This document shows, in pieces, positions 25,927 through 49,932 of a DNA stretch of 64,000 bases (its first letter is position 1; each line of letters starts with the position of its first letter). Source of the stretch: Bixzunavirus cane17 (Duplodnaviria; Heunggongvirae; Uroviricota; Caudoviricetes); the IMG/VR virus record IMGVR_UViG_2974759174_000001, one strand, 5' to 3'. A model generated the notes under the pieces. The model was not told the origin of the DNA. It ran no database searches and saw only the letters and a program-made list of their open reading frames with translations. The position numbers were made by a program, and so were the translations under genes.

Positions 25927-27441
25927 ATGTGCTACGGCTGCCAGCAGGTCCTCGCTGACTTGCAGGACTACTACGAGGGCGCACGGATCACCGCCGCCGA
26001 GTGCCAGGTCCCGCCGGAGTGGCAGCGCTACTACGACCACATGAGCGGTCAGCCGGATCGCTCGCAGGCCGCGCACCTGATGATGCCGACCGAGCTGGTG
26101 CACCACTACCGCGAGTACGACCGTGACCCTGCCGACCCGAACTACCAGGTGCTCAAGAAGGTCATCCGGGAGCACGGCAATCAGATCCGTCAGCCGCTGG
26201 TAATCAACGCCGACGACACCCACGGCGTGCTAACCGAGGGCAATCACCGCGCGGCCATCGCGCGCGAGCTGGGCATCACTCATCTGCCAGTGCGGGTCCA
26301 GTACGGCCCCAAAGCCCAGGCCAACGAGGGCACCCCGGTGCCGCACCATCCTGCATTCAAGCAGTGGCTGGACGCTAACATCGGAGGACTGCAGCGTCAG
26401 GCTGGGGCCAATGGCGATATGCCTGCGGGCATCAGGATTCAGCAATTGCCCCGGATTCAACGCAAGCAACAGATTGAACCGTGGCTCGGGTTGAAAGAGA
26501 ATGGCGTTCACGCCTTGCATCCGGACGGAACTGAGTTGGGTCACTTGACCTGGTGGGAGCCGGATGGCGAAATTGCCGGAGTTGAAGTTCATCCCGATTA
26601 CCGTCGACGCGGCATTGCCGACGCGCTGTTAGACTACGCACGGTCAAACTTCAATCCGGAGGTGCATCATTCAGAGACTCTGACAGCTGATGGCAGAGCT
26701 TGGTCCAAGCAACGCCAGGCCGGTGTCGACCCGGAGATGACGTCGCTGGTGCACTTCACCAAGCCGCACATCCGCGACAAGATCATCCAGGAGCAGCGGT
26801 TCCAGCAGCATCCGCAGGGTGCTCACAACGACCATTCGTTCTTCACCACCTATGACAACCGTCACGACCCCGACTTCCGGGGCAAGTGGGGATACGGCGA
26901 TGTCGGCGTTGTCGTGGACGTCCCGTCGCACCTGGTGAAGCCGGACGGAGACTGGCCGCATCCCAAGTCGTTCATGGTGCATCGGGACGACTTGGCCGGA
27001 CTGCCGATCCGTTCGCTGGACCGACACGCCGCCGAGGACCGGTGGGACCACCCTGCCGAGGGTGAGGGCTTTGACGCCTGGCGCAACCGGCTGTGGGACG
27101 GTCTGGCCGAGGGTAAGACCTTCCACCCGAACGCCCCGGGCAGCCACTACCGGGCGATGAGCGACGAGGAGTTCAAGGCCGGTATTGCCAACGGCGGCTT
27201 TCACACCCTGCCGGGCAACAAGAGCCTGTTCGTCACCGACGACCCCGATCGGCTGGCCGGTGGCGCCTACGGCGGCAAGGGTGGCGGACACATCGTCGAG
27301 TTCGCCCCGCAGGAGACTCACGACGTCTCCAGCTACTACGTCAACGGCCTCAACGAGAAGGGCGTCAGTCACATCCCGCTCGACGCGGTGCGCCGGGTCT
27401 GGAGCTGGAACGGATCGGACCACCATCCGGCCCCCTACTGA
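25927..27441 (+). CDS. ParB-like nuclease (sulfiredoxin-fold) and GNAT acetyltransferase fusion protein with a 230-aa C-terminal domain of unknown function (504 aa)
   Basis: ParBc motif QPLVINADDTHGVLTEGNHRAAIARELGITHLPV; GNAT motif A VEVHPDYRRRGIADALLDYA. Confidence 0.8.
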   Translation: MCYGCQQVLADLQDYYEGARITAAECQVPPEWQRYYDHMSGQPDRSQAAHLMMPTELVHHYREYDRDPADPNYQVLKKVIREHGNQIRQPLVINADDTHGVLTEGNHRAAIARELGITHLPVRVQYGPKAQANEGTPVPHHPAFKQWLDANIGGLQRQAGANGDMPAGIRIQQLPRIQRKQQIEPWLGLKENGVHALHPDGTELGHLTWWEPDGEIAGVEVHPDYRRRGIADALLDYARSNFNPEVHHSETLTADGRAWSKQRQAGVDPEMTSLVHFTKPHIRDKIIQEQRFQQHPQGAHNDHSFFTTYDNRHDPDFRGKWGYGDVGVVVDVPSHLVKPDGDWPHPKSFMVHRDDLAGLPIRSLDRHAAEDRWDHPAEGEGFDAWRNRLWDGLAEGKTFHPNAPGSHYRAMSDEEFKAGIANGGFHTLPGNKSLFVTDDPDRLAGGAYGGKGGGHIVEFAPQETHDVSSYYVNGLNEKGVSHIPLDAVRRVWSWNGSDHHPAPY

Positions 27442-27553
27442 TCGGCCCGATAGGCGCGACTCGCAGATACCCGCAGACAAGCTCGACAAAGCCTGATACA
27501 GTCATCCCTATGTTCGCTTTCCGCCTGAGTTTGTCCTCATCGCTACTTAGCTA

Positions 27554-27574
27554 GCGGAGGGCTCACTCCTCCGC
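27554..27574 (+). other. hairpin GCGGAGG-gctcact-CCTCCGC immediately 5' of tRNA-Ser (acceptor-stem-like remnant or processing signal)
   Basis: perfect 7-bp stem; the CCTCCGC motif recurs four times in the tRNA region. Confidence 0.35.
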
Positions 27575-27580
27575 GTCTAA

Positions 27581-27663
27581 GGAGGGTGAGCATCAGGTGA
27601 TGCAGCGAGATTGCTAATCCCGTACGGTAACCACCCCGTGAGGTTCGAATCCTCCTCCCTCCG
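27581..27663 (+). tRNA. tRNA-Ser (anticodon GCU) with long variable arm
   Basis: acceptor GGAGGGT/TCCCTCC, T-arm GAGG-TTCGAAT-CCTC, anticodon loop TTGCTAA, variable arm ACGG-taaccacc-CCGT. Confidence 0.6.
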
Positions 27664-27689
27664 CGTAGTACATCCATGGAGGATGAAGC

Positions 27690-27735
27690 AGCCGCGTAGT
27701 GCGGCGACCGGATTCGAAACCCGGGTAGCGCGTCA
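27690..27735 (+). other. tRNA-like remnant (T-arm-like CCGGATTCGAAACCCGG) without a foldable acceptor stem
   Basis: T-loop-like sequence seen; no complementary acceptor found on either strand. Confidence 0.25.
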
Positions 27736-27856
27736 TGGCGCTTGGGGAGCGTGCCCTCCTTCCTCCGCTTGGGAGAAGAAACCGTCAAGGCTGACGGGAC
27801 CGCTTGGAAAGCGGCTCGTGGGTAACACCATGAGGATCGTGCCCTCTCTTCTCCGC

Positions 27857-27942
27857 GCCTCGGTGACGTAATGGAAGCCGTGCTGCACTCAGACTGCAGT
27901 GTCCGAAAGGGCGTGAGGGTTCGACTCCCTCCCGAGGTACCA
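27857..27942 (+). tRNA. tRNA-Leu (anticodon CAG) with long variable arm and encoded CCA
   Basis: acceptor GCCTCGG/CCGAGGT (G-U at 1-72), anticodon stem CTGCA/TGCAG perfect, loop CTCAGAC, T-arm GAGGG-TTCGACT-CCCTC, 3' ACCA. Confidence 0.7.
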
Positions 27943-27943
27943 A

Positions 27944-28016
27944 GCCCCTGTATCCCAACGGCAGAGGAAGCGGTCTGAGAGGCCGTTCAGTGAGGGTTCG
28001 AATCCCTCTGGGGGCA
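27944..28016 (+). tRNA. tRNA, type I (short variable arm); the anticodon loop reads CTGAGAG (GAG), so the isotype is ambiguous
   Basis: acceptor GCCCCTG/TGGGGGC, T-arm GAGGG-TTCGAAT-CCCTC; a Leu anticodon without a long arm is anomalous. Confidence 0.5.
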
Positions 28017-28017
28017 C

Positions 28018-28091
28018 GCCGCAGTATGCAAACCGGAAAAGCAGCCGTACTCAAAATGCGGTGCGTGCGGGTTCGATCCCCGCCTGCGGTA
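28018..28091 (+). tRNA. tRNA, type I; the anticodon loop reads CTCAAAA (CAA), so the isotype is ambiguous
   Basis: acceptor GCCGCAG/CTGCGGT, T-arm GCGGG-TTCGATC-CCCGC. Confidence 0.5.
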
Positions 28092-28458
28092 CTTTGGCTC
28101 GTTGACGTTGCTGCGCCTGGGTGTTGGCGGCAGTGCAGGCCTTGCACCGGCACTTGATCTTGGGGTTGCGATACCTCCCCACAGTTCCATGCTGGTGATA
28201 TCCCATGTCGTTCGCCGTCTTCTCCTGATGACAGGGCTCGCAAAGCACCTGACACTTGGTCAGCTCAGCTTCTCGCCGTGCGGCGCTCCAAGACCAGATC
28301 TTGTGGTCGACTTTCTGAGTCGGGTCGATGTGATCAAGTCGGAGATCTTCTGTGGCACCGCACTCCACACAGGACTTCCCTGCGAAGTACTCGGTTCGCC
28401 GTCGCGCCACCCATTCACGTTGATACTGGCGCTGGGCTTCGGGGTCCTTGTAGGGCAC
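28051..28458 (-). CDS. HNH homing endonuclease (135 aa); its 3' end overlaps the last tRNA on the opposite strand
   Basis: CVECG ... LDHIDP ... KCQVLCEPCH HNH motif; GTG start with GGGATAGGA RBS. Confidence 0.8.
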   Translation of the reverse strand: MPYKDPEAQRQYQREWVARRRTEYFAGKSCVECGATEDLRLDHIDPTQKVDHKIWSWSAARREAELTKCQVLCEPCHQEKTANDMGYHQHGTVGRYRNPKIKCRCKACTAANTQAQQRQRAKVPQAGIEPARTAF

Positions 28459-28504
28459 GGGTTCATCCTATCCCTGAGTACACATGGCGCAGTGCCGGTC
28501 TACA

Positions 28505-28514
28505 ACCTGTAGAA
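28505..28514 (+). promoter_or_regulatory. copy 1 of conserved motif tCAACCTGTAG, 68 bp upstream of the giant acidic-protein gene
   Basis: identical 10-mer also at 36596 and 39576. Confidence 0.35.
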
Positions 28515-28572
28515 AACCTACCGACCTGTTCTAACCAGTAGGAGCAACACCTTCTATCTGGCAGGAGCAGGG

Positions 28573-31500
28573 ATGAGTGACTTTGGTCTGTTCGAGGCGG
28601 CAGCTGACGCCGAACAGGAGCCGAGCCGTAAGCACCGGATCGCCGCGCGCAAAATGGCCGCAGCGCTGGTCGACGTGCACGCCAAGTTCGGGTCGTTCAT
28701 GACCAACGCTGACGGCGTCGACAACTTCGAGGACCGGTTCTCGATGAGTCGTCGTGACATCGCCAAGGTCATGGTGGCCCACGGTGTGGGCGCCTATCCG
28801 GCGGTGATGCGTGAGGTCCACGGCAGCCTCAAGAGCGCTTGGTACGAGAAGCACGCTGAGTTCGACGAAGACGCGGGCACCACCGAGGAGTCCAACTTCG
28901 AGGACGGCGATGACTCCGGCTCGGACAAGCCCGGCGGCAAGGAGGCCCGGCGCCGCAAGGTCGCTGAGGACCGCGACGCCCCGGTACAGGCCATCCAGGA
29001 GACCTACGCCCCGTCGGGCGGCAACTTGGTCCCCGAGGGTGACTTCGACGGCTACCTGGACCGAGTTGACCAGGGTGGTCCTGAGAACGTCAGTGGCCAC
29101 GACTTCACCCCCGGCGGCGACTCGGGTGTGGACTCCCACCACCACGAGGCCCGCCAGCTGGTGGCCGACCTCTACACCGACTGGGCCGAGAGCAATGGCC
29201 TCCGTGTCGCGTCGATGAACACCCTCGACGTCTACGCGGCCAACGGCCTGCACGACGACGACTACTACCTGCTGGCCGCGATGATCCGCAAGGCCGAGTG
29301 CGAGTGCGAGGACGACGACAAGGAAGAGTCCGACTCGGACGATTCCGACTCGGACAGCGATAGTGACTCGGACAGCGACTCGGACGACGACGTCGACGAG
29401 GACGGCCCCGAGGGTCCGGACACCGACAGCGACGGCCCGCCTGCGGGTGCTGCCGAGAAGGGCGGCGAGATCTCCGACGAGGGCGGATCCGAGGACGACT
29501 CCAATCCGTTCGACGGCGAGGATGAGGCCCCCGAAGAGGATGGCGAGGACTTCCCGGCAGACCCCAATGGCCTGGAGGACGCCGGTCCTCAGGACGCGCC
29601 CGTCGACGACGGCAGCGCTGGTGGCCAGGAGTTCACCGTCCCCGAGCAGGCCCCTGAGCTGCCACAGGACGAGATGAGCCAGCTGCAGGACTCCGGTCCA
29701 CAGAGCGTGCCGCCGGAGGTTATCGACGACATCCTGGGCCTGCCTCCGGGCACCCTGGAGCAGCTCATCGCCGAGGAACTCGGTCAGGCTGGCGGCGGCA
29801 CTCCGCCGCAAGGGTCGCCTCCGCAGTTGGCCCGCCGACGTCGTCAGGCGGCAGAGGACCCCACCGGGGCCGCTGAGTCTGCCGACCAGGGTGACGCAGC
29901 GGCGGCAGCAGCCCCGGCAGCCGCAGGCGCGGGCAGTGCTGGAGCCATCCCGCCGCCTGGATCGGCCTCGGTCGCTCCTCCGCCCGCACCGGCGCCGCTG
30001 GAGAACCAGCCCGCCGAGGACGCACTGCTGGACACCGCCGTCCAGTCGGTCACCCAGATGATCGACCGCGAGACCCAGGAGTACCAGCAGATCATCGACC
30101 CGCTGACGCAGGCCCTGCAGGCGATCGAGTTCGCCCAGCAGGTCGAGCAGGCCGAGAATCCGCTCGACGTCACCCCGCCCGAGGGCACCGTCGATGCCAG
30201 CCCGGCAGCAGCCCCTGGTGGCGCCAACAGCCTGCAGCAGCAGGCCAGCCACGCGCGGCGCATGATGGCGCGCACGGCAGGCATCGCCAAGCAGTTCGGC
30301 CTGACCAAGCGGGCCGAGGCCATGATGATCCACGCGATGAGCCGCAAGCACTACGAGCACGTGGCCGAGGCCATCCGTATGGTGCCGCCGGAGATGCGCG
30401 GTCCGGTCGCCGAGCACATTGGCGCGATGTTCCGTGAGGACAACCCCCGGTTCAACCACGACCTGTGGATGCAGCACGTCGCCGGAAACAGGCGCGCCAA
30501 GAGCACCGACGACTTCCACACCTACAACGACCGTGGCGGCGAGCCGGGTGATTACGAGCGCAACAACCGGGGCTACAGCGAGATCGGCAACGGCATGGTG
30601 CAGGACTGGGAGACCGGCGAGGTCTACCCGCACCCCGGACGCACTGCGGGCCGCTGGAACACCCCGCCGGGCGGGACGCCGTGGCTGGATGCCACCCCAG
30701 CGAGCCGCCGCCCTTTCGTCGTTAGCCGTACCGCCGGGGAGACCTGGAAGAACACGCCCACCATGGACGCGTTCGAGTTCCCCGGCCACGGCGAGACGCC
30801 GGAGATCTCCGACAACATGAAGATCAACGACCTGCCGAAGACGACCAAGAACGCCGCCCTCGACGTCGAGGCCAAGGGCGTGCTCGACATGTTCGACGAC
30901 TTCACCAAGAAGCGCACCGACAAGGGCCTGAACCTGGGCCCTGCGGCCAACGTCGAGACGTTCAAGCAGGAGAAGGGCGACAAGGTCGGTCCCAAGGCTC
31001 TCGACAAACTGGAGAAGACCATCGAGGCCAACCGCAAGGCGGCGTCGTTCTTCACCCGCAAGGTGCCGGGTTGGACCTGGAACGACCACCTGGCCGGGTA
31101 TGTCACCGACGCCCGTCGGCAGTTCATCTGCTCGTGCGGCGCCGGTATTGAGACGCCGAGCTATACCATGTGCCACTGCGGCAAGATCTGGAACAGCTAC
31201 GCGATCGGCGACACCCAGCACCTGGCCAGCGACTCCGCCGAGCAGTTCATCACCCGCGAGATCCCGGTCCGCAAGGACGTGATCCTGGCCAACCGTCAGA
31301 TGGCCGATGGGCCGCTTACCGGCGACGAGAGGCTGCCTCAGGACGACCCTGAGAGTCTGGCCTATCAGGACCGCCAGGGGATCTCGAACGCCCCTGGGTG
31401 GGGCACCTGGCCGCAGCATCAGATGAAGATGATCGTCGACAGCCCGGAGTTCCGTGTCCCGGAGCACTACTTGCCGGGTCGTGACCGAATGAGCCACAAG

Positions 31501-32002: not shown

Positions 32003-32473
32003 ATGACAGCTGTCGAGGATCGCTTTTGGTCCAAGATCGATGCATCTGATGGATGTTGGCTCTGGACGGGGTCTCTCACGCACAACGGATACGGTCGATT
32101 CAAGGTTGACGGGAAGATGGTCCGAGCACATAGGTTCGCCTATCAGATGATGATCGGCGACATCCCTGAAGGCATGGAGCTGGACCATCGGCACACCTGT
32201 CCCAAGAGGTGCGTCAATCCAGAACACCTGCGACTTGTAACGCACAAACGCAATCAGGAGAACCGGTCAGGAGCCATGAGAAACAGCTCCACCGGCATTC
32301 AAGGGGTGTATTGGGACAAGAGGAACTCCTGCTGGCATGCGCGGGTGGGACATCACGGCAAGCGCGTCCACGTGGGGCGTTTCTTGACCTCGGAAGAGGC
32401 TGAGGCTGCCGTTGTTGCCAAGAGGCTGGAACTCTTCACTCATAACGACGCAGACCGGTTGGTGACCGTATGA
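32003..32473 (+). CDS. HNH endonuclease with C-terminal AP2 DNA-binding domain (156 aa)
   Basis: DGCWLWTGSLTHNGYGRF ... ELDHRHTCPKRCVNPEHLRLVTHKRNQ (HNH_3); GIQGVYWDKRNSCWHARVGHHGKRVHVGRF (AP2). Confidence 0.8.
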   Translation: MTAVEDRFWSKIDASDGCWLWTGSLTHNGYGRFKVDGKMVRAHRFAYQMMIGDIPEGMELDHRHTCPKRCVNPEHLRLVTHKRNQENRSGAMRNSSTGIQGVYWDKRNSCWHARVGHHGKRVHVGRFLTSEEAEAAVVAKRLELFTHNDADRLVTV

Positions 32474-37294: not shown

Positions 37295-38761
37295 GTGCTC
37301 GATATTCAGTTCACCGATGAGATTGTCGTCGAGGTGCTCGACAGCAACTTCTCCGACAGCCGGGTCTGCGTGGCAGCCCGGACGTCGACAGCAGGTGCTG
37401 GCGCCGATGACAGCGAGCGCTACGGGCTGATCAACGCCCTGATGCGTGACCGTCACGGCACGCCGTTCGAGCACATGAACGCGACCTTCCGGGTGACCGC
37501 GCCGATCTTCGTCTGGCGCGAGCACCACCGGCACAGGTCGGGCTTCTGCGTTGCAGGGTCCACCCGCGTGCCTGTTGGTTCCGGCAAGGACGGCAGGACC
37601 AAGACCATCGAGGACATCTACCGTGACTGGCACCTGGGGGTCCCCGATTCGTTGGGGAGGAACAGGAAGCTGCCAAGCTGTCGCAACCTTGCTACCCGAA
37701 CGGTCAACCTCGACACCGGATTGGTGGAAGCCGCCCGCATGGTCGACGTCTTCCAGTCAGGCGTCAAGCCGATGATCTGGCTGCGGTGGGAGAACGGCAA
37801 GGGGCTCCGGTGTACTCGGGAGCATCGAGTGTGGACTCCCGAGGGTTGGGTCAAAGCGGGCGACCTGCAGGTCGGTGACTTGGTCGGTCGCATCGGTCTG
37901 GTCGCCTACGGCGAGGCTCCCCGCTTCTACTCCAAGAAGCTGCGCGAGGGTATCGGCATCTGGACTTCGCAGCAGCGCGATCTGATCCAGGAGGTGGACA
38001 CCTGTCATCGCTGCGAGGGGGTGTTCTCCAAGAGTGATCTGGAACTCGATCATGTCATTCCGGTCTGTGAAGACCTCAAGCTGGCGCTGGACAGGGATAA
38101 TCTCGCTCCGATCTGTGCTCCCTGCCATGACGTCAAGTCTCGTGAGGAGACGTCACGCAATTACGAGAACCGCCGCCAGCGTGCCAATGGTGTGCGATTC
38201 GAGAAGGTGACGTCCATCGAGGACGGCGGCGAGGAGATGACTTACGACCTGGAGATGCCGGGTCCGTATCACAACTTCATTGCCAATGGTCTGGTTGTTC
38301 ACAACAGCTACAACGAGGAGTCCGGGCGCTACAAGCAGCTCGATCCGGTCTTCTACGTCCCCGGAGAGACCCGACCGATCGCCAAGGTCGAGGGCACCCG
38401 AAACATGGACTACGTCCTGGAGAAGGGCACTGCCGACCAGCACGCCCTGATCGCCAACGCGATGTGGGCCACCTGTTCTGGTGCCTATCGCCAGTACGAG
38501 GCCATGCTCGACGCGGGCATCGTGCGCGAGGTCGCACGCATGGTCCTCCCGGTGAACATCATGAGCACCTGCATCGTGACCTGCAACGCGCGGTCGCTGA
38601 TGCACTTCCTGTCGTTGCGGCAGCGCCACGACGACGCCAAGTTCCCCAGCAAGCCCCAGTACGAGATCAACTTGGTCGCCAATGGGTACGAGCGGCTGCT
38701 GGCCGAAGAAGCACCGTTGGTGCACCGCAGTTATGTCGAAAACGGGCGAGTCGCCCCGTAG
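37295..38761 (+). CDS. thyX: flavin-dependent thymidylate synthase ThyX interrupted by an HNH-type intein (488-aa precursor, 235-aa extein)
   Basis: ThyX signature REHHRHRSGF then intein then SYNEESGRY (RHR-x7-S motif split by the intein). Confidence 0.85.
   Translation: MLDIQFTDEIVVEVLDSNFSDSRVCVAARTSTAGAGADDSERYGLINALMRDRHGTPFEHMNATFRVTAPIFVWREHHRHRSGFCVAGSTRVPVGSGKDGRTKTIEDIYRDWHLGVPDSLGRNRKLPSCRNLATRTVNLDTGLVEAARMVDVFQSGVKPMIWLRWENGKGLRCTREHRVWTPEGWVKAGDLQVGDLVGRIGLVAYGEAPRFYSKKLREGIGIWTSQQRDLIQEVDTCHRCEGVFSKSDLELDHVIPVCEDLKLALDRDNLAPICAPCHDVKSREETSRNYENRRQRANGVRFEKVTSIEDGGEEMTYDLEMPGPYHNFIANGLVVHNSYNEESGRYKQLDPVFYVPGETRPIAKVEGTRNMDYVLEKGTADQHALIANAMWATCSGAYRQYEAMLDAGIVREVARMVLPVNIMSTCIVTCNARSLMHFLSLRQRHDDAKFPSKPQYEINLVANGYERLLAEEAPLVHRSYVENGRVAP
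37547..38305 (+). mobile_element. mini-intein with HNH endonuclease domain (253 aa) inserted in the ThyX active-site motif
   Basis: Cys1 TGC 37547; HNH CHRCEGVFSKSDLELDHVIPV ... CAPCH; ends LVVHN then Ser+1. Confidence 0.8.
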
Positions 38762-39030: not shown

Positions 39031-39585
39031 GTGGAGTTCGTTGCCGACGACCGAATCCCGCCGGGCTATCACATCCCATCATCGTGGATGTTGCGTTCTG
39101 CCGACGCCGAACAGGCCAAGCAGACCGGCGGCATGGTCGCGCTCTATCCCTCGACGGAGTCGGCGCAGAAGATCGTGGTGCCCGGCGGGGAACCGATCGA
39201 CGACCTGCACCTGACGGTCACCTACTTCGGGCAGGACGTCACCGGGCAGGACCCGACCGAGCTGGTCGACTTCCTGTACTACCTGGCCCCGCAGTTCCCG
39301 CCGATCGAGGCGAACATCTTCGGCACGGCGGTGTTCAACTCGACCGGCGAGGACCCCTGCATCGTCTACCTGGTCGGCAACTCTCCGCACCTGACGCCGC
39401 TCTTCCAGCAACTCAAGCGGTTCGCGCTGGAACACTACCCCGGCGCTGCCGAGCAGCACGATCCGTGGATTCCGCACATCACTGCGGCCTACGGCTCAGG
39501 GGCGATGATCGACTACGAGGGCCCGGTGGTCTTCGACCGCATCGGCATCCGCTGGCCTGGCGCTGATCAGGACTTCAACCTGTAG
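39031..39585 (+). CDS. 2H-phosphoesterase superfamily protein (LigT-like 2'-5' RNA ligase / cyclic phosphodiesterase), 184 aa
   Basis: two H-x-T/S-x motifs HLTVTY and HITAAY at the expected spacing; RBS AAAGGAGGG. Confidence 0.7.
   Translation: MEFVADDRIPPGYHIPSSWMLRSADAEQAKQTGGMVALYPSTESAQKIVVPGGEPIDDLHLTVTYFGQDVTGQDPTELVDFLYYLAPQFPPIEANIFGTAVFNSTGEDPCIVYLVGNSPHLTPLFQQLKRFALEHYPGAAEQHDPWIPHITAAYGSGAMIDYEGPVVFDRIGIRWPGADQDFNL
39576..39585 (+). promoter_or_regulatory. copy 3 of motif tCAACCTGTAG (overlaps the LigT stop codon)
   Basis: identical 10-mer. Confidence 0.35.
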
Positions 39586-48993: not shown

Positions 48994-49932
48994 GTGAGTG
49001 TATGCGCCAACCCCGAGTGCGGCAAAGAGTTCGAGCAGCCCAACAAGTACCGCACCACCAAGACATGCTCCAAGGAGTGCCGATACGCGGTCTCGGCCAG
49101 CACCACCAAGGCCTCCAGTGGCCGGTGGGAGACCAAGGTCTGCCCATGTGGAGTCGAGTTCCAGAGCGCCGTCAATAAGCCCAAGACGTATCACGACTGG
49201 GACTGCATGATGAAGCATCGGCAGGAAGACGCTCGGGCGTCTCGGACGTGCGAGAATCCTGAATGCGGCAAGGAGTTCACTTACTTCAAGCGCCAGAATC
49301 AGCGGACCTGCTCGCCGGAGTGCCGCAACAAAGTCACCGCCATGAAGCGTGAGAACAACTATCCCGAGTGCCAGACGTGCGGTGTCTCCACCGGCTCCTA
49401 CAACCGGATCTACTGCGACGAGCACCGCCCTAATCGTCCGGGCCGCAAGCCCGCACCTCGGATCACTGCGACCTGCCTGTGCTGTGGTGAGGAGTTCACT
49501 CGCCCGGAGAACTACCCCGGCAAGATGAAGTACTGCTCGAACGCCTGCAGTCATCGTCAGGTGAAGAAAGTCCGGGACAAGTTCATCGCCGACCTCCCCG
49601 AGGGTGCGATCGTCTTCCACAGCATGTGGGAGGTGCGCTTCGTCGCTGCCTGTGAGCGGTTCGACATCCCCTGGCGCTCCTACGACGGTCCCGACATCGA
49701 GACCTCTCAAGGCGTCTACCGTCCTGACTTCATCATCGGCAAGCCGGGCGAGGAGCGCGTGGTCGACGTCAAGGGATGGCTGCGGCCTGAGTCCGAGGTC
49801 AAGTGCCGCGAGGCCGGGGTGCATCTGGTGACCAAGCAGGAGCTGCTGCGGCTGGAGTCCGGTGACAGCTTGGACGCGCATCGCGCATTGCTATGGAACT
49901 CGGGAATGAATGCCCATACCGGTCTGTTATGA
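48994..49932 (+). CDS. zinc-ribbon-repeat protein with C-terminal PD-(D/E)XK nuclease-like domain (313 aa)
   Basis: four repeats of C.NPECGKEF ... RTCS.ECR; C-terminal PDFIIGKPGEERVVDVKGW (D ... E.K); GTG 48994 with AGGGAG RBS. Confidence 0.7.
   Translation: MSVCANPECGKEFEQPNKYRTTKTCSKECRYAVSASTTKASSGRWETKVCPCGVEFQSAVNKPKTYHDWDCMMKHRQEDARASRTCENPECGKEFTYFKRQNQRTCSPECRNKVTAMKRENNYPECQTCGVSTGSYNRIYCDEHRPNRPGRKPAPRITATCLCCGEEFTRPENYPGKMKYCSNACSHRQVKKVRDKFIADLPEGAIVFHSMWEVRFVAACERFDIPWRSYDGPDIETSQGVYRPDFIIGKPGEERVVDVKGWLRPESEVKCREAGVHLVTKQELLRLESGDSLDAHRALLWNSGMNAHTGLL

Follow-up and report, generated by a model that had tools for sequence, protein, structure and literature searches.

Mycobacterium phage Cane17 (NC_054716 / MH697579), a cluster C1 myovirus of the genus Bixzunavirus that has a 160-kilobase (kb) genome and infects M. 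smegmatis, carries a compact set of transfer RNA (tRNA) genes within bases 1-64000 of its genome, the stretch of 64,000 nucleotides (nt) analysed here and referred to as the window. The region is probably a tightly packed cluster of six phage tRNA genes lying on the same strand and read as a single transcript (Table 1), and a 2-kb query covering it (27000-29000) finds it in 203 related records. The spacers between the genes measure 1-14 nt and every tRNA gene is followed by an encoded C74, the full CCA being present in tRNA-Leu(CAG). Four of the genes, numbered 72-75, are annotated in the GenBank record of Cane17, which places no coding sequence (CDS) between 27441 and 28573, and are already known; the two tRNA-Ser genes with anticodons CGA and GGA are unannotated and new for Cane17. 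At default settings ARAGORN reports four tRNAs only over the whole window, Ser(gct), Leu(cag), Leu(gag) and Leu(caa); these are the anticodons that the initial annotation of the region had read, and Rfam concurs for the three leucine genes. Judging from their sequences, it is reasonably probable that all six genes, three for serine and three for leucine, are working decoders.

Table 1. Features of the Cane17 tRNA cluster, with positions in the window
Feature	Position	Strand	Evidence and remarks
Leader hairpin GCGGAGG-GCUCACU-CCUCCGC	27554..27574	+	6 nt 5′ of tRNA-Ser(GCU); read from sequence
tRNA-Ser(GCU), gene 72	27581..27664	+	ARAGORN default; Rfam tRNA-Sec 39.5 bits; model R1 78.6 bits
tRNA-Ser(CGA), unannotated	27678..27768	+	Rfam tRNA-Sec weak match; ARAGORN -ps80; model R1 40.6 bits
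tRNA-Ser(GGA), unannotated	27772..27856	+	ARAGORN -ps90; model R1 46.4 bits; fold z-score -4.5
tRNA-Leu(CAG), type II, gene 73	27857..27942	+	ARAGORN; Rfam tRNA 46.9 bits
tRNA-Leu(GAG), type I	27944..28017	+	ARAGORN; Rfam 46.7 bits; tRNAscan-SE isotype Leu 51.1; covariation
tRNA-Leu(CAA), type I	28018..28092	+	ARAGORN; Rfam 52.3 bits; tRNAscan-SE isotype Leu 58.4; covariation
HNH endonuclease open reading frame (ORF), 135 amino acids	28051..28458	-	ORF list; Pfam PF01844 21.9 bits

ARAGORN draws the three serine tRNAs of Cane17 with G73, a long variable arm and stems of 8 base pairs (bp) in the acceptor and 4 bp in the T arm. In tRNA-Ser(GCU) these are accompanied by a 5-bp D stem with a 4-nt D loop and by an encoded C74. 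The initial annotation had credited both this tRNA and tRNA-Leu(CAG) with proper long arms, which holds for the 15-nt arm of the latter; tRNA-Ser(GCU) is long-armed, but its 8/4 build is not that of a proper class II tRNA, and in a permissive Rfam search its best model is tRNA-Sec, at 39.5 bits and under the gathering score of 47. The same search returns a second weak tRNA-Sec match of 22.5 bits at 27678-27766, which corresponds to tRNA-Ser(CGA) and in which the stretch GGAUUCGAAACC aligns as the anticodon loop UUCGAAA with anticodon CGA. Hence, the segment 27690-27735, previously described as a remnant consisting of a T arm alone, is in fact the D arm and anticodon arm of a complete tRNA. When ARAGORN was relaxed, tRNA-Ser(gga) appeared at 27772-27856 with -ps90 and tRNA-Ser(cga) at 27681-27768 with -ps80. 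Since the relaxed settings also yield false positives, independent evidence was sought for the two hidden serine genes.

In tRNA-Ser(CGA) a 5-nt linker, AAGCA, a 5-bp variable stem and a T loop AGCGUGC are followed by G73 at 27767 and C74 at 27768, whereas tRNA-Ser(GGA) has a 6-bp D stem with a 4-nt loop, an anticodon loop UUGGAAA, and G73 and C74 at 27855 and 27856. The T loop of the latter, AUCGUGC, has A54 and U58 swapped relative to the usual U54/A58 and retains U55 and C56. The D arms of the three serine tRNAs, GCAUC-AGGU-GAUGC, GCCGCG-UAG-UGCGGC and CCGUCA-AGGC-UGACGG, resemble that of tRNASec in long stem and tetraloop, their stem boundaries having been picked by a best-hairpin search and being hence fitted. 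Identity with tRNA-Sec was nevertheless rejected on account of the scores (39.5 and 22.5 bits against 47), the 8+4 branch and the anticodons GCU and CGA. Further low-scoring Rfam matches (plastid untranslated-region families, mir-87 and sR7) were dismissed as antisense or partial views of the tRNAs.

Related phages keep genes of this build in the same order. The slots of Bxz1 read Ser-GCU, Ser-CGA, Leu-CAG, Leu-GAG and Leu-CAA; the cluster C2 phage Myrna has the same order, and its second gene is labelled in GenBank as a tRNA-Ser reading UCG. All three serine genes are present in Roots515, Tonenili and Bigswole, and Ser-CGA/Ser-GCU pairs of like build occur in cluster M (MrMagoo, Nanosmite, SirSheldon) and in Sparky. 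Eighteen distinct phage sequences were aligned by hand segmentation, padded with N to hold the register, because plain MAFFT misaligned the 5′ halves, where linker and arm lengths vary. The 8/4 cloverleaf leaves 93.1% of the cells of this alignment paired, against 63.4% for shuffles and 45-51% for slid partners, and 26 of its 31 pairs show changes on both sides. The complete pairing (100%) of the D and variable stems is partly by construction, since these were chosen by the best-hairpin search; the acceptor, anticodon and T stems, on the other hand, were set at fixed offsets and not fitted. The eighth acceptor pair is found in every sequence (18/18), in four pair types, while the fifth T-stem pair of a 7/5 tRNA is found in two (2/18). 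The identity set of seryl-tRNA synthetase (SerRS) is a long variable arm with G73 or U73, and a variable stem of 3-6 bp and G73 are present in 18/18.

The two hidden genes take part in this covariation. Relative to its homologues in Nanosmite and MrMagoo, tRNA-Ser(CGA) carries compensatory changes, and tRNA-Ser(GGA) covaries with the Ser(GGA) of Bigswole and with the Ser(GCU) genes of cluster M. Their odd T loops recur in cluster M together with compensated T stems (GAGG/CCUC versus GUGG/CCAC) and acceptor stems, which argues for constraint rather than decay. Six sequences, none from Cane17 and all with canonical T loops, were taken from other phages to build a covariance model, R1. Its matches below E = 0.01 in the 64 kb of the window are three: 27581-27663 at 78.6 bits, 27772-27855 at 46.4 bits (E 1.4e-8) and 27681-27767 at 40.6 bits (E 3e-7). 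The model also recovers the serine homologues of Sparky and of phages from C1, C2 and cluster M; no extra copy was found within the 66 kb searched of the remaining Cane17 genome. The interval between Ser-GCU and Leu-CAG, which had been taken for decayed tRNA genes, thus appears to hold two complete serine genes whose stems covary and which R1 detects, rather than pseudogenes, some doubt being left for tRNA-Ser(CGA) by its T loop. The MrMagoo locus offers a parallel observation: the hypothetical CDS gp155 (1647-1793) partly overlies an 8/4 tRNA-Ser(GCU) at 1589-1673, which has acceptor stem, T arm and odd T loop in common with the Ser(GGA) of Cane17, and an unannotated Ser(CGA) lies directly upstream, at 1494-1586. 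The gp155 CDS is probably a mis-annotation.

Three of the four CCTCCGC sites noticed in the region belong to these genes. Four copies had been claimed; three are exact on the plus strand (27568, 27658 and 27762) and the fourth site, at 27850, reads TCTCCGC. Window-wide the motif is unenriched, with 11 copies against about 25 expected. The sites at 27658, 27762 and 27850 are the acceptor 3′ strand, G73 and C74 of the three serine tRNAs, and at 27568 the motif forms the 3′ arm of the leader hairpin, which has it on both strands (27554-27560 and 27568-27574). The leader, 27480-27574, is itself conserved in C1 and C2 phages through blocks such as ACAGT..ATGTTCGC..CCTGAGTTTGTC, and the hairpin closes it before tRNA-Ser(GCU). 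In Bxz1, Myrna, Roots515 and Bigswole a leader hairpin stands in the same place but reads GAGGGC-GCTT-GCCCTC, so that position is kept and sequence is not. The leader region may serve as a promoter or in processing. A scan of 27300-28700 gave two terminator-like matches, both on the minus strand, one of them being the D arm of tRNA-Ser(GGA) read backwards.

The leucine tRNAs depart from the canonical form in a different manner. All three score well above the gathering score of 29 of the Rfam tRNA model (46.7-52.3 bits). The variable arm of more than 10 nt that defines a canonical class II tRNA is found in tRNA-Leu(CAG), which has a 15-nt arm, G1.U72, A73 and, as had been noticed, its own CCA at 27940-27942; it is missing from the other two. 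As the initial annotation had it, these are type I tRNAs with anticodons GAG and CAA: tRNA-Leu(GAG) has the 5-nt variable loop UCAGU, a 3-bp D stem, A73 and C74, and tRNA-Leu(CAA) has the 5-nt loop UGCGU, G1.U72, A73 and C74. A set of 12 type I leucine tRNAs from clusters A, C1, C2 and L has 100% of its stem cells paired, with 16 of 20 pairs covarying. U8, a 3-bp D stem, U48 and A73 are common to all 16 phage leucine tRNAs of both types, with G1.U72 in 14 of them, and the tRNALeu core (U8-A14, G18G19, 3-bp D stem, U54-A58) is found in Leu-GAG, Leu-CAA and all 16. A reading of the two short genes on the reverse strand, as Glu-CUC and Gln-UUG, was rejected, given that the T loop GGTTCGAATCC and the Rfam matches are on the plus strand.

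The two leucine forms replace one another. Removal of the hairpin from the type II arm UG[UCCGAAAGGG]CGU leaves UGCGU, the type I loop. The Leu-CAG slot holds a type II tRNA in Cane17 and a type I tRNA in Bxz1, Roots515 and Myrna, for Leu-CAA, Cane17 and Bxz1 have type I where Myrna has type II, and the anticodon arm of the type II Leu-CAG of Cane17 is identical to that of the type I Leu-CAG of Myrna. A D-arm motif scan for the type I leucine family, with one genome per bacterial species, gave 77 loci holding 60 type I tRNA-Leu (CAA 34, GAG 16, CAG 7, UAG 2, UAA 1); the CAA genes are mostly from Jiangellaceae and other Actinomycetota, and the GAG and CAG genes mostly from Planctomycetes. Type I tRNA-Leu(CAA) of the phage-like family was also seen in M. 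alsense, Mycobacterium sp. and M. talmoniae, one of the three loci being in a 14-tRNA array and two beside a short (76-77 nt) tRNA-Leu(UAA). Five cyanobacterial loci have a 77-nt tRNA with a Leu-type D arm, GTAGGCAAA..GG.AAAGCC, a short variable loop, the anticodon UUC (Glu), G73 and an encoded CCA, so that body and anticodon apparently disagree. In Bxz1 (1766-1884) and Roots515 (1861-1979, both in locus coordinates) a 119-nt spacer, absent in Cane17, separates Leu-CAG from Leu-GAG; one frame of the Bxz1-type spacer encodes a small peptide with CxxC..CxxC motifs.

The composition of the cluster follows the codon use of the phage. In the likely genes of the window, the leucine codons CTG, CTC and TTG take fractions of.563,.255 and.130, and the serine codons TCG, AGC and TCC fractions of.363,.293 and.210, in agreement with a published C1 codon table that also reports phage and host codon use to be similar (van den Berg et al., eLife 2023, PMC10264068). 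CUG, CUC and UUG are thus the three commonest leucine codons of the phage, and the six anticodons CAG, GAG, CAA, CGA, GCU and GGA are the cognates of the three commonest leucine and the three commonest serine codons; with G34 wobble they cover about 98% of leucine and about 96% of serine codons. The main tRNA array (92.8-100.1 kb) and the two genes at 129.5 kb have no annotated leucine or serine gene and cover the remaining amino acids. In the proposed pathway ribonuclease P would cut each tRNA at its 5′ end, and the CCA-adding enzyme would complete the 3′ ends, as every gene is followed by C74. The host SerRS would charge the serine tRNAs by reading the long arm and G73, not the anticodon, and the host leucyl-tRNA synthetase (LeuRS) would charge all three leucine tRNAs, as an actinobacterial LeuRS does with type I tRNALeu (Fan et al., Nucleic Acids Res 2019, PMC6614811). 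Processing and charging by host enzymes would give the phage its own decoders for about 95% of its leucine and serine codons.

The presence of the hidden genes bears on a published proposal, in which phage tRNAs stand in for host tRNAs that VapC-type toxins deplete (PMC10264068). Its authors also worked on cluster C1, with the four annotated Cane17 tRNAs among their material; they count Ser(CGA) and Ser(GGA) among those 'only encoded by the host' and read this as anticodon avoidance, on the ground that VapC cuts inside these anticodons, and the Bxz1-type Ser-CGA sequence is missing from their tRNA list. Ser(GGA) is nevertheless encoded by Cane17-type C1 phages and Ser(CGA) by both Cane17-type and Bxz1-type phages, which removes the premise of anticodon avoidance in C1. 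The Cane17-type stretch with the hidden serine genes is matched over at least 80% of its length by 92 C1 records, 89 of them at an identity of at least 99%; among the matches listed, of 95 matching C1 records, none of 40 has a tRNA-Ser feature over it. The Bxz1-type Ser-CGA is present in a further 105 records, few of which are annotated among the matches listed.

Two types of mycobacterial toxin, reported to target these tRNA families, are of concern here. For VapC, cleavage of Ser(GGA/CGA/UGA) inside the anticodon has been reported (PMC10264068), and MenT3, a nucleotidyltransferase of the AbiEii family, blocks tRNASer, which it recognises by its long variable loop and by how long its acceptor-T arm is (PMC11162799). 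We tentatively propose, as a possibility on which we would not insist, that the cluster is an anti-defence module supplying a full replacement set for the two class II tRNA families of the host. In the model, the reshaped features, namely the deletion of the variable arm in leucine tRNAs and the 8/4 branch, the Sec-like D arm and the swapped T loop in serine tRNAs, might, in its most conjectural step, make these non-host shapes poor substrates for VapC-type anticodon nucleases and for MenT3/AbiEii-type nucleotidyltransferases. Serine and leucine decoding would then persist when the toxins disable the host isoacceptors. Since both anticodons are present, any escape would rest on overall shape and not on loop mutations or avoidance. 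If true, escape through whole-tRNA architecture would replace the published idea of anticodon avoidance for C1 phages.

Several observations weigh against working decoders or against their proposed role in defence. Default ARAGORN over the whole window misses Ser(CGA) as well as Ser(GGA), and both are absent from the C1 tRNAs that ARAGORN and tRNAscan-SE gave in PMC10264068. The weakest member of the cluster is tRNA-Ser(CGA), in which position 55 is G and not U, the acceptor contains a U.U mismatch, the 31:39 pair is mismatched, the linker is 5 nt long and the fold z-score is just -1.4. Its 5′ register can be set at 27678 or 27681, each pairing 7 of 8 positions; the former was preferred because cluster M homologues have the same linker, (A/C)AGCA. 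The promoter scan of 27300-28700 revealed no sigma-70-like site. Expression, processing and charging of the six predicted tRNAs are deduced from their sequences, and the acceptance of type I tRNALeu by M. smegmatis LeuRS would follow by analogy with S. coelicolor; the mycobacterial type I loci have the look of mobile arrays or pairs more than of clear core genes. Toxin evasion is an indirect argument: the toxins were studied in M. tuberculosis and not in M. smegmatis, and the serine tRNAs retain the long arm and the anticodon GA, so their shapes could simply be inherited.

Inheritance of the shapes is the substance of a simpler explanation, in which the six tRNAs top up the decoding of the commonest serine and leucine codons during the large late burst of structural-protein synthesis and their architecture is unselected. 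The match of the anticodons to common and not to rare codons agrees with it, as does the spread of the same tRNA families over bacterial genomes and phage clusters with no relation to one another (A, L, M, Sparky), suggestive of a mobile pool that they share, and so does the free exchange of long-arm and short-arm leucine forms between relatives. We nonetheless consider plain supply somewhat unlikely: it leaves unexplained why just the two class II families are set apart in a separate cluster and why all three serine genes are off the host 7/5 shape across several phage clusters, and with phage and host codon use so similar, host tRNAs should already meet the phage demand.

Less probable, and in our opinion unlikely, is that Ser(CGA) and Ser(GGA) are decaying or non-translational elements of Cane17-type phages, such as processing signals or decoys, and that only the four annotated tRNAs work. 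The non-standard T loops AGCGUGC and AUCGUGC would fit such decay, as would the G55, the stem mismatches and the 5-nt linker of Ser(CGA), the rejection of both sequences by default tRNA finders, and the minimum-free-energy fold of Ser(GGA), which extends the variable stem at the cost of the T stem. However, the same odd T loops are found with compensatory stem changes in cluster M, where one belongs to the annotated Ser(GCU) of SirSheldon. Moreover, the anticodon loops retain U33 and A37 together with anticodons that read the commonest serine codon and the third commonest, G73 and C74 are conserved in both genes, and the same slot of Bxz1-type and Myrna-type phages holds a Ser(CGA) with a canonical T loop, the Bxz1 copy of which encodes CCA.

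The two short leucine tRNAs had also been suspected of recoding, and their sequences and the meaning of their codons both bear on this. Published tRNAscan-SE results on the exact Cane17 sequences give the same anticodons and a leucine body (Leu-GAG 48.7, isotype Leu 51.1; Leu-CAA 54.4, isotype Leu 58.4; PMC10264068 supplement). Codon meaning was examined in 24 Cane17/Myrna orthologue pairs of the replication region (7827 aligned codons, 51.6% identity); this set was used because the flanking genes 71 and 76 were uninformative, being too distant from Myrna (29-41% identity) and too close to Bxz1/Tonenili (92-98%). An alignment of DnaB with a PDB homologue, at about 20% identity, was too weak to serve. 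Cane17 codons are aligned to leucine in 60% of cases for CTC (n=200), 55% for TTG (n=20) and 59% for CTG (n=407), with the same I/V/M spectrum among the non-leucine replacements at all three, while TCG, AGC and TCC swap among themselves and with Ala/Thr/Gly. CUC and UUG behave as leucine codons and recoding is unsupported. A type I body with a leucine anticodon is indeed abnormal in most bacteria, so the description of these tRNAs as atypical stands, and a changed body could in principle reassign a codon because LeuRS, SerRS and alanyl-tRNA synthetase ignore the anticodon; yet the charging of the GAG and CAA tRNAs with an amino acid other than leucine, recoding CUC/CUU and UUG, is very improbable in view of the leucine isotype call, the absence of G3:U70 and the retention of A73, the filling of the same anticodon slots by long-arm leucine tRNAs in related phages, the working, charged type I tRNALeu of Streptomyces, the substitution of CTC and TTG like CTG, and the share of CUC, about one quarter of all leucine codons.

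The flagged region therefore consists neither of recoding tRNAs nor of gene debris. The hidden genes decode the first and third commonest serine codons of the phage, and they indicate that non-canonical phage tRNAs are under-counted by standard finders. The cluster also constitutes a compact natural test set for the tRNA features that mycobacterial toxins and synthetases read, as it holds 8/4 serine tRNAs with normal and swapped T loops and, in the same slot, leucine tRNAs with and without a variable arm.

At its 3′ end the cluster meets a gene of the opposite strand. The HNH ORF scores 21.9 bits with Pfam HNH (cut-off 21.4), and it overlaps the 3′ 41 nt of tRNA-Leu(CAA) with its final 13 codons and the stop, in accordance with the overlap noticed initially; it is annotated at the same place in phage Lukilu and unannotated in the Cane17 record. 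In Bonray and similar relatives the match to the 2-kb region is split in two and lacks about 290 nt, suggesting that the HNH gene is an insertion. The gene travels with minority leucine alleles, the Cane17-type Leu-CAG and Leu-GAG being present in 15/161 and 14/161 C1 phages (eLife supplement), and this association could reflect co-conversion by a homing endonuclease. Three more annotated HNH genes lie in the structural-gene part (32003-32473, 37295-38761 and 48994-49932), a high density of homing-type nucleases. Gene 84 (39031-39585, plus strand) is annotated as 'RNA ligase' and has a sub-threshold match to the Pfam 2′-5′ RNA ligase superfamily (25.6 bits, cut-off 27); for a phage that has to cope with tRNA damage, an enzyme of RNA repair would make sense. 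Elsewhere in the genome there are a peptidyl-tRNA hydrolase, an RF-1 domain protein, a transfer-messenger RNA and an RNA-binding protein whose Myrna counterpart is annotated as Ro-like. In Myrna (2557-2628) and Phabba (2139-2209, both in locus coordinates) ARAGORN finds a tRNA of 71-72 nt with anticodon CUA, of the amber-suppressor type, adjoining a peptidyl-tRNA hydrolase gene and labelled in GenBank as tRNA-Ser (UCG) for Myrna and as tRNA-Arg(tct) for Phabba. The eLife supplement has another CUA-anticodon tRNA, termed a suppressor, in 3 C1 phages.

In relation to known systems, the Cane17 genes are members of two known non-canonical tRNA kinds, together with a modest correction to published work. 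The serine tRNAs correspond to the (8/4) tRNASer or allo-tRNA shape, which has been reported in bacteriophages (Mukai et al., Nucleic Acids Res 2017, PMC5389517). They have in common with it a 12-bp branch split 8+4, a Sec-like long D stem with tetraloop, a long arm, G73 and serine anticodons, and in both cases the tRNAs were found as false positives of the tRNA-Sec model. That work names proteobacterial phages and rumen bacteria, and its text has no match to 'mycobacter'. To the shape Cane17 may add the A54/U58-swapped T loop of Ser(CGA) and Ser(GGA) and the 5-nt acceptor-D linker of Ser(CGA). The likeness to bacterial tRNA-Sec (RF01852) comprises the long acceptor stem, a D stem of 5-6 bp with a 4-nt loop and the long variable arm, but the branch of the Cane17 tRNAs has 12 bp (8+4) and not 13, their anticodons are GCU and CGA instead of UCA, and their scores stay below 47. 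The short leucine tRNAs have their counterpart in the type I tRNALeu(CAA) of S. coelicolor, which is leucylated by the single LeuRS of that organism, whereas the E. coli enzyme is described as charging type II only (PMC6614811). The phage and S. coelicolor tRNAs resemble each other in the 5-nt variable loop, the retention of U8-A14, G18G19 and the T loop, the actinobacterial setting and the coexistence with long-arm tRNA-Leu; in S. coelicolor, however, type I is confined to the CAA isoacceptor, whereas in the phages the short-arm form is also found with CAG, GAG and UAG.

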